Source of the DNA: Escherichia coli
GTDB taxonomy: Bacteria; Pseudomonadota; Gammaproteobacteria; Enterobacterales; Enterobacteriaceae
Strand: one strand, 5' to 3'
Assembly (NCBI RefSeq): GCF_017348835.2
Contig: NZ_CP071375.1
DNA length: 64,000 nucleotides
Part shown: in pieces, positions 63,388 through 64,000 of the stretch
Layout: the number at the start of each line of letters is the position of its first letter
Position numbering within the stretch: position 1 is the first letter of the stretch
Made by a program: the position numbers and the translations under genes
The notes under the pieces: model-generated
Databases searched by the model: none
What the model was told of the DNA's origin: nothing
Seen by the model: the letters and a program-made list of their open reading frames with translations, nothing else

Positions 63388-63439
63388 CTCCTGTTAACCC
63401 GCTATCATTACCGTTTTCCTCCAGCGGGTTTAACAGGAG
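63388..63439 (+). promoter_or_regulatory. Stem-loop between yeiH and nfo that pairs the nfo Shine-Dalgarno
   Basis: CTCCTGTTAACCCGCT...(19 nt)...AGCGGGTTTAACAGGAG; the 3' arm ends in the AGGAG RBS 8 nt upstream of the nfo ATG. Confidence 0.5.
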
Positions 63440-63446
63440 TCCTCGC

Positions 63447-64000
63447 ATGAAATACATTGGAGCGCACGTTAGTGCTGCTGGCGGTCTGGCAAATGCCGCA
63501 ATTCGCGCCGCCGAAATCGACGCAACCGCGTTTGCCTTGTTCACCAAAAACCAACGTCAGTGGCGTGCCGCACCGCTCACGACGCAAACCATCGATGAAT
63601 TCAAAGCCGCCTGTGAAAAATATCACTACACATCGGCGCAAATTCTTCCCCACGACAGCTATCTGATTAACCTCGGACATCCGGTCACTGAAGCTCTGGA
63701 AAAATCGCGCGATGCCTTTATAGATGAAATGCAGCGTTGCGAACAACTGGGGCTTTCTTTGCTCAACTTCCACCCTGGCAGCCATCTGATGCAGATTTCA
63801 GAAGAGGATTGCCTTGCGCGTATTGCCGAATCCATCAACATTGCGCTGGATAAAACTCAAGGTGTGACCGCGGTGATTGAAAACACCGCCGGTCAGGGCA
63901 GTAACTTAGGGTTTAAATTCGAACATCTCGCGGCGATTATCGACGGCGTGGAAGATAAATCCCGTGTCGGCATCTGCATTGATACCTGCCATGCTTTCGC
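63447..64000 (+). CDS. nfo: Endonuclease IV, N-terminal 184 codons (gene runs off the window end)
   Basis: ATG at 63447 translates [39 protein letters not shown]...; open to the end of the window. Confidence 0.9.

Follow-up and report, generated by a model that had tools for sequence, protein, structure and literature searches.

A hairpin between yeiH and nfo of Escherichia coli encloses the nfo promoter and is predicted to mask the nfo ribosome-binding site only on RNA entering from yeiH

The spacer of 73 nucleotides (nt) between yeiH and nfo, located near the end of a 64,000-nt stretch of Escherichia coli DNA (contig NZ_CP071375.1; this whole stretch is called the window below), contains a long inverted repeat whose RNA form can bury the ribosome-binding site (RBS) of nfo, the gene for endonuclease IV. 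The gene order is yeiE (minus strand), yeiH (plus strand), nfo (plus strand), and nfo is truncated by the end of the window. The 5' arm of the repeat, CTCCTGTTAACCCGCT, occupies plus-strand positions 63388-63403; it contains the anti-Shine-Dalgarno sequence CTCCT and forms the promoter spacer between -35 and -10. The 3' arm, AGCGGGTTTAACAGGAG (63423-63439, plus strand), is part of the nfo 5' untranslated region (UTR) and contains, by direct reading of the sequence, the nfo Shine-Dalgarno (SD) motif AGGAG (63435-63439, plus strand), 7 nt before the ATG. The intervening loop of 19 nt (63404-63422, plus strand) holds most of the nfo -10 hexamer, the nfo transcription start site (TSS) and a conserved pyrimidine-rich tract, TTTTCCTCC. 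The original prediction for this DNA had placed a near-perfect inverted repeat in the spacer, with the nfo AGGAG in its 3' arm, and both observations hold: the arms pair through 16 Watson-Crick pairs interrupted by one bulged T (U in RNA), and a 17th pair, G63387-U63440, is added in the minimum-energy fold.

Folding with a free-energy estimate, proposed with that prediction as a check, bears the structure out. The 52-nt hairpin RNA reaches -23.3 kcal/mol against a mean of -7.7 (standard deviation 2.2) for dinucleotide shuffles (z = -7.1; 0 of 200 shuffles as stable), and the hairpin in a 97-nt context with its flanks reaches -29.1 kcal/mol (z = -4.1). In both the minimum-energy and the centroid fold, AGGAG is paired throughout its five bases, and the stem includes the G+C-rich CCCGC/GCGGG; the segment of the 5' arm outside the anti-SD sequence is TGTTAACCC, with GGGTTTAACA as its counterpart in the 3' arm. 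The hairpin falls within the best 0.5% of 54-nt segments on both strands of the 64-kb region (211 of 42,632 overlapping segments), an energy rank that is unusual yet comparable to that of other terminator-like hairpins of the window. The strongest local hairpins, at 41938-41991 (plus strand, -39.1 kcal/mol), 17032-17085 (plus strand, -26.4 kcal/mol) and 61277-61330 (minus strand, -27.8 kcal/mol, between lysP and yeiE), have long near-perfect stems and are intergenic; they are probably terminators or elements of the repetitive extragenic palindrome (REP) type. The many dispersed copies expected of a repeat of the REP or bacterial interspersed mosaic element (BIME) type are not found for the yeiH-nfo hairpin region, which has a single location in each of 5,425 E. 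coli genomes. Of 5,426 complete genomes searched, these 5,425 carry it, 5,424 of them at 99% identity or more, and the 221 nt surrounding the hairpin are 100% identical to K-12 MG1655. Rfam 15 returns no relevant family match over 62200-64000 even at E <= 10, and a consensus scan calls neither a terminator nor a promoter at the hairpin.

What this structure can do is decided by where nfo transcripts begin. SMRT-Cappable-seq, which records full-length, cap-selected primary transcripts, lists a transcript from 2,250,806 to 2,252,832 of NC_000913.3 that covers b2159|b2160, with 145 reads in M9 and 123 in rich medium (PMC6131387). Window coordinates are those of NC_000913.3 minus 2,187,393 (anchored on the nfo ATG, 2,250,840 = 63447), which places this nfo-yeiI TSS at 63413 of the plus strand, or at 63414 if the table is 0-based (the yeiH TSS in the same table lies 1 nt below that of Kim 2012). 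With either coordinate the TSS is within the loop, 10-11 nt downstream of the 5' arm. In mRNA from nfo's own promoter the 5' arm is thus missing, which puts that mRNA out of the hairpin's reach and leaves only RNA arriving from yeiH for it to act on. The two RNA forms differ accordingly in computed accessibility: opening AGGAG costs 10.4-11.4 kcal/mol in RNA begun upstream of 63388 and 2.6 kcal/mol in RNA from 63413, and opening the whole segment from the SD motif through the AUG costs ~14 kcal/mol in upstream-begun RNA and 6.7 kcal/mol in RNA from the TSS. By these folding energies, the hairpin can mask the nfo RBS only on yeiH read-through RNA. The central claim of the original prediction, a stem-loop that sequesters the RBS of nfo's own mRNA, does not survive this result: the published TSS has the nfo transcript starting downstream of the 5' arm, which is the very arrangement that had been named as telling against it, and AGGAG is opened in that transcript at a cost of only 2.6 kcal/mol.

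The nfo promoter is nested in the same element. Its -10 hexamer, TATCAT (63403-63408, plus strand), borders the loop on its 5' side and precedes the mapped TSS by 4-5 nt; as TATNNT, whose T, A, T and final T do not vary among 27 Enterobacteriaceae species, it is the best-conserved element of the spacer alignment. There is no recognisable -35 hexamer (ACATCT occupies that position). A forward marbox/soxbox-like sequence, ATCGCATAAACCACTACATC (63365-63384, plus strand), overlaps the yeiH stop and the expected -35 position, has two mismatches to AYNGCACNNWNNRYYAAAY and is separated by 18 bp from the -10 hexamer downstream; GCATAAACCACTACAT is kept across genera although it spans the yeiH stop codon. 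The marbox consensus was dropped as statistical evidence: ATCGCATAAACCACTACAT (63365-63383) has two mismatches to it, but the window holds no more matches to the pattern than chance predicts (18, with 17.8 expected). Genomic SELEX (systematic evolution of ligands by exponential enrichment) with the RpoD holoenzyme gives a signal in the yeiH>nfo spacer (PMC3946193), and nfo is cited as marbox- and SoxS-regulated (PMC2989944); a MarA screen and Rydenfelt 2014 contain no entry for nfo or yeiH. Judged by its sequence, the nfo promoter is probably of the class II SoxS/MarA/Rob-dependent kind. The gene is a textbook member of the SoxRS regulon, and nfo reportedly figures among class II SoxS/MarA/Rob promoters in the work of Jair et al. 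in 1996 and Martin et al. in 1999. That SoxS makes use of the start at 63413/63414 is something we infer from promoter geometry together with the footprinting literature of the 1990s.

These promoter data bear on the proposal that the hairpin is, after all, part of the nfo mRNA and regulates its translation, as a thermosensor, a processing site or through regulated unmasking. A stable stem containing AGGAG is in its favor, and the mapping of the TSS exclusively without oxidative stress gives it room for an extra, stress-specific start farther upstream. It is nevertheless very improbable: the mapped start, 63413/63414, lies in the loop; the invariant -10 element and the marbox-like site 18 bp upstream of it place an activator-dependent start at that same position; no other nfo start is found in Kim 2012, which lists no nfo start site in E. 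coli or Klebsiella; and Rfam provides no match.

Two further observations concern this promoter and its transcript. The pyrimidine-rich tract on the 3' side of the loop (63414-63422), which reads TTTTCCTCC in E. coli and TTTCCCCC, TCCCCT or CCCTCCTCT in relatives, constitutes roughly the opening 10 nt of nfo mRNA; the E. coli version includes CCUCC, a potential weak pairing partner for GGAG in RNA from the nfo TSS. Outside the Enterobacteriaceae, in Yersiniaceae, Pectobacteriaceae, Hafniaceae and Morganellaceae, the nfo promoter has a different layout, with an extended -10 element, TGcCATAAT, at a constant 25 nt from the ATG (loci L017, L026, L027, L029, L031, L032, L039 and L041 of the comparison, and other non-Enterobacteriaceae loci), implying an nfo 5' UTR of ~18 nt in those families.

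Conservation of the hairpin was assessed in 27 Enterobacteriaceae species, a sample from the 80 loci listed, which include no Salmonella or Klebsiella. A hairpin enclosing the -10 hexamer is present in all 27, at energies from -18.5 to -42.7 kcal/mol and with loops that vary from ~9 to ~52 nt. Twenty-two of these species have GGAG: all four of its bases are paired in 17, and two or three of them in the other 5. In Cedecea, the outer helix CUCCUG/CAGGAG is kept despite 16 nt inserted between it and the inner helix, and in several lineages the stem is extended over the SD-AUG spacer by sequences that are unrelated to one another: ACGACU/AGUCGU in Pseudocitrobacter, AAAGGGG/CCCCUUU in Phytobacter and CUAC/GUAG in Pseudescherichia. 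Phytobacter massiliensis (L004, 1760-1880) carries a loop insertion of ~50 nt, which itself contains a hairpin; the outer stem persists there, and AAAGGGG/CCCCTTT lengthens it as far as the start codon, for a total of -42.7 kcal/mol.

Co-evolution of the arms was evaluated in a register-independent way, by taking the 30 nt that precede the -10 hexamer and the last 28 nt ahead of the ATG and exchanging them between species. Within the Enterobacteriaceae, native arm pairing beats swapped pairing (1 of 20,000 permutations reaches the native mean energy), and relative to composition-matched shuffles native arms have a mean z of -3.3, with 74% of the species below -2; related species are not independent, and both figures overstate the number of evolutionary events. 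At the level of sequence comparison, these tests support co-evolution of the arms and argue against chance. Chance complementarity, or a neutral relic without function, accordingly merits very little credence: it draws on the ~20 occurrences of hairpins of similar energy in the 64-kb window and on the modesty of the column covariation, and it is opposed by the retention of the hairpin in 27 of 27 species despite indels and substitutions as well as by the permutation and shuffle values.

The same comparisons bear on the proposal that the repeat acts as DNA, either as a cruciform that influences the activity of the nfo promoter or as the operator of a dimeric regulator. The -10 hexamer and the TSS lie between the arms, a typical arrangement for a repressor site, and both arms are highly conserved in sequence; moreover, the minus strand of the repeat folds equally well (-25.8 kcal/mol), and the asymmetry of G-U and A-C appositions is indecisive. 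However, arm spacing ranges from ~9 to ~52 nt between species, and the arms show compensating substitutions and lineage-specific extensions of unrelated sequence. Variable spacing combined with compensating changes fits base pairing, not a protein's half-sites held at constant distance, and a DNA site is therefore considered highly unlikely.

The relationship is weak beyond the family. Outside the Enterobacteriaceae, the composition-controlled test yields a mean arm z of -0.5, with 4 of 36 species below -2, and these weak scores restrict the claim to the Enterobacteriaceae plus sporadic cases. A fold-back layout general to the Enterobacterales, an idea prompted by repeats around the CATAAT -10 element of Serratia, Yersinia and Pectobacterium, was given up. 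Local inverted repeats do surround the extended -10 element in Serratia oryzae (CCTGTGTGTATC/GATAACACAGG) and Pectobacterium (TCTGATCAACC/GGTTATCAGA); the group as a whole is no better than shuffles. A covariance model built from the 27 spacers recovered just those 27 and reached no other Enterobacterales families.

Any RNA that would cross the hairpin has its source at the yeiH TSS, at 62307 of the plus strand (2,247,722 of NC_000913.2, equivalent to 2,249,700 in version 3, in Kim 2012; 2,249,699 in SMRT-Cappable-seq). The yeiH coding sequence, which specifies a PF03601 inner-membrane protein, extends over 62324-63373 of the plus strand (open reading frame list and MG1655 annotation), and its TAA stop codon (63371-63373) precedes the base of the stem by 14 nt. 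In Salmonella, yeiH is induced by YeiE together with sulfite, and its promoter is nearly silent without sulfite (PMC12880088). SMRT-Cappable-seq lists yeiH (b2158 alone) as a one-gene operon (PMC6131387). The coding sequence of nfo occupies 63447-64000 of the plus strand by annotation (ATG at 63447-63449), where it is cut by the window end; between 63500 and 63700 it is C-rich and G-poor, with C/G ratios of 1.4-2.2 in 78-nt segments (the 90th percentile of the window is 1.58).

The position of the hairpin just past the yeiH stop codon raises the question of termination. The E. coli hairpin has the stable stem with G+C-rich segments of an intrinsic terminator. Its loop, at 19 nt, is longer than the usual 3-8 nt, and a U-tract is lacking: two U are found in the 8 nt after the stem, and UCCUCGCA follows. 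A canonical intrinsic terminator was rejected for E. coli on these two of the four defining features. Relatives differ in this respect: the 8 nt that follow the stem include 2-3 U in E. coli and E. albertii, whereas a U-rich run comes right after the stem in RIT691 (7 of 8), Enterobacter cloacae (6 of 8) and Citrobacter (5 of 8), with U-tracts of 4-7 U in RIT691, E. cloacae, Citrobacter and Leclercia, and in Cedecea the inner stem is followed by UUUU, forming a complete inner terminator. In relatives with a U-tract after the stem the hairpin is, on this sequence evidence, probably an intrinsic terminator as well. The Citrobacter/Kluyvera group (L011, L013, L018 and L033) has its own arrangement ~70 nt upstream of nfo, in which the 3' arm pairs with the -10 hexamer (CCGCTATACTC/GAGTATGGCGG) and TTTAATTT follows; to judge from the sequence, it resembles a terminator of the more classical sort, the stem of which includes the promoter -10 element.

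These facts would be accommodated if the hairpin were simply the yeiH terminator or a stabilizer of its 3' end, the overlap with the SD motif and the promoter being a by-product of the short spacer, with no gating of translation. The U-rich runs of many relatives and the inner stem and UUUU of Cedecea are in keeping with this, as are the strong hairpins (-23 to -25 kcal/mol) that Citrobacter and Kluyvera form without AGGAG and the record of yeiH as monocistronic. Other evidence is less easily fitted to it: the E. coli loop of 19 nt, the 2-3 U of E. coli and E. albertii and the silence of the terminator scan; the retention of the outer CUCCUG/CAGGAG helix even beside the complete inner terminator of Cedecea; the extension of pairing over the SD-AUG spacer by unrelated sequences in several lineages; and the failure to find a 3' end here among the entries of Adams 2021 and the SMRT-Cappable tables. 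Termination or 3'-end stabilization alone is consequently considered unlikely, albeit far from negligible. The original prediction had offered a yeiH terminator that also gates nfo translation upon read-through, and it fares unevenly: gating of read-through RNA fits the cost of 10.4-11.4 kcal/mol for opening AGGAG and the conservation of the pairing, while the label of yeiH terminator is weak in E. coli, given the 19-nt loop and the missing U-tract.

A dual role is favored instead, as RBS mask on read-through RNA and as protective 3' end of yeiH mRNA, because the outer SD/anti-SD helix and its extensions into the start region are not needed for termination. The mechanism would run as follows. 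The inverted repeat would become an RNA hairpin only on transcripts that enter from yeiH, with the nfo promoter nested inside it. Transcripts from nfo's own promoter would be without the 5' arm and would present an accessible RBS. Read-through RNA from yeiH, on the other hand, would fold the stem once the 3' arm emerges, thereby burying AGGAG; it would then not be translated into endonuclease IV, and its untranslated, C-rich (rut-like) start of nfo might be exposed to Rho, the hairpin staying behind as a stable, protective 3' end of yeiH mRNA. The net effect would be to insulate nfo from yeiH regulation, that is, to separate the sulfite/YeiE from the SoxS stimulus. An insulator of this kind, which ends or stabilizes yeiH RNA and blocks production of endonuclease IV from read-through, leaving nfo dependent on its own promoter, is put forward with moderate confidence. 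A more ambitious generalization is offered tentatively, as somewhat more doubtful than not: that across the Enterobacteriaceae the nfo promoter has been placed by design in the loop of the hairpin that forms the end of the upstream gene, making a single RNA element with three jobs (finishing or stabilizing yeiH mRNA; silencing read-through RNA and exposing it to Rho; leaving SoxS-initiated mRNA translatable) and separating the sulfite/YeiE and superoxide/SoxRS regulons.

A number of points weigh against the insulator. The hairpin, the TSS in its loop, the computed energy difference between the two RNA forms and the conservation are shown here; the occurrence of read-through, the block to translation, the participation of Rho and the formation of a 3' end are steps that we infer. 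The nfo TSS was mapped without oxidative stress, and identity with the SoxS-induced start depends on promoter geometry and the footprinting literature of the 1990s. The SMRT-Cappable tables hold no transcript end between 2,250,700 and 2,250,899, and no yeiH or nfo 3' end is among the entries listed in the Adams 2021 Term-seq supplements; since the yeiH promoter is, in Salmonella, almost silent without sulfite and YeiE, data sets collected under standard conditions would not reveal read-through. Column covariation is modest, with 5-6 pairs changed on both sides and most pairs conserved rather than covarying: among 500 shuffles of the model-fitted alignment, 9 reach the observed count of cells with changes on both sides and 19 reach the covariation score. 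The counts of G-U and A-C, 31 versus 21, do not identify the strand by their asymmetry. The Citrobacter/Kluyvera group keeps the hairpin and has neither AGGAG nor the outer helix, so RBS masking is not universal. Finally, the opening energy of the nfo RBS, computed with 100 nt of upstream context, ranks third among 50 neighboring genes; the value is high, not unique, and for that reason RBS opening energy was dropped as evidence of uniqueness. The RBSs of mlrA and yohO (MG1655 counterparts, L082 27473 and 28264) are harder to open, at 15.8 and 14.8 kcal/mol, values that refer to 100 nt of upstream DNA context whether or not that sequence is included in their mRNAs.

The window is ~98% identical to K-12 MG1655, and its last 14.6 kb are collinear with that genome; the yeh fimbrial region (1-16900) is only ~92% identical and is shifted or rearranged, the remainder being 97-99% identical. 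Synteny of yeiH and nfo is kept across the Enterobacterales. Downstream in MG1655, the yeiI start follows the nfo stop at a distance of 2 nt, and the two genes are co-transcribed from the nfo TSS (NC_000913.3 2,250,806-2,252,832) in what SMRT-Cappable-seq calls a novel operon; Kim 2012 places a yeiI-directed TSS inside nfo (2,249,464, version 2), just past the window end.

Searches of the full-text literature, including work on nfo promoter and TSS mapping and the spacer sequence itself, found no description of a hairpin at nfo. The mechanism is already known from phage T4 and from insertion sequences (IS), and what is gained is one clean, conserved chromosomal example, not a new principle. 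If the insulator is real, the output of endonuclease IV is decoupled from a neighboring sulfite-induced transporter gene despite a spacing of 73 nt, and the chromosome possesses a counterpart of the T4/IS10 device that keeps two stress regulons separate; a promoter, a 5' UTR and the 3' structure of an upstream gene can, it appears, be superimposed in one element. There is also a caution here for annotation: a hairpin that, seen in the DNA, would sequester an SD motif may be missing from the mRNA of the gene itself, and it is the position of the TSS that decides. Should insulators with a promoter in the hairpin loop prove common between codirectional bacterial genes, they would make up an under-recognized class of operon boundary.

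With intrinsic terminators, the yeiH-nfo hairpin shares the G+C-rich stem segments, the location 14 nt after the yeiH stop codon, the U-tract of several relatives and a monocistronic upstream gene; it differs in its E. coli loop (19 nt compared with a typical 3-8) and in having UCCUCGCA rather than a U-tract after the stem. The nfo promoter resembles the class II promoters of fumC, micF and sodA in having a good -10 hexamer, a forward marbox-like sequence 18 bp away over the -35 position, and no recognizable -35; no difference from that class is indicated.

IS10 and IS50 follow a similar logic: transcripts from external promoters are reportedly subject to fold-back inhibition, in the accounts of Davis, Simons and Kleckner in 1985 and Krebs and Reznikoff in 1986. 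At nfo, as in these elements, an RNA structure would hide the RBS against impinging transcription, and the gene's own TSS lies downstream of the 5' complementary segment. At the left end of IS200, a terminator that guards against transcription from outside is joined by an SD hairpin (PMC4513863), which is also present in the element's own mRNA, unlike that of nfo. All three are mobile elements that limit their transposase, whereas nfo serves in housekeeping and stress and belongs to a syntenic pair that is conserved.

Two of the features that define promoter-nested RBS masking are found at nfo: an SD motif masked in the long RNA, and a TSS of its own past the 5' strand. The functional ones, upstream transcripts that cross the hairpin and are translated less than the short ones, are predicted for nfo. 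The RBS-masking hairpin of the T4 lysozyme gene, e, is said to have been described by McPheeters et al. in 1986. In the early transcripts of T4 genes e, soc, 49 and I-TevI, a helix hides the SD motif, and late promoters within the DNA of the 5' strand give rise to translatable mRNAs (PMC3014915). The likeness is one of logic: in the T4 genes, the longer, upstream-initiated RNA sequesters the SD motif, the AUG or both, and the gene's own promoter is located in the 5' strand or the loop; at nfo, the -10 hexamer and the TSS are in the loop and AGGAG is in the 3' arm. There are differences as well. The effect on translation has been measured in T4 (~100-fold for gene e), and nfo is likened to it by sequence, fold energy and TSS; T4 uses a phage late promoter, and nfo, a chromosomal stress-repair gene, a promoter of the sigma-70 type that is probably activator-dependent; the T4 switch is temporal, and that of nfo would be thrown between two stress regulons, YeiE/sulfite and SoxS; and the nfo hairpin may serve, in addition, as the 3' end of the gene upstream.

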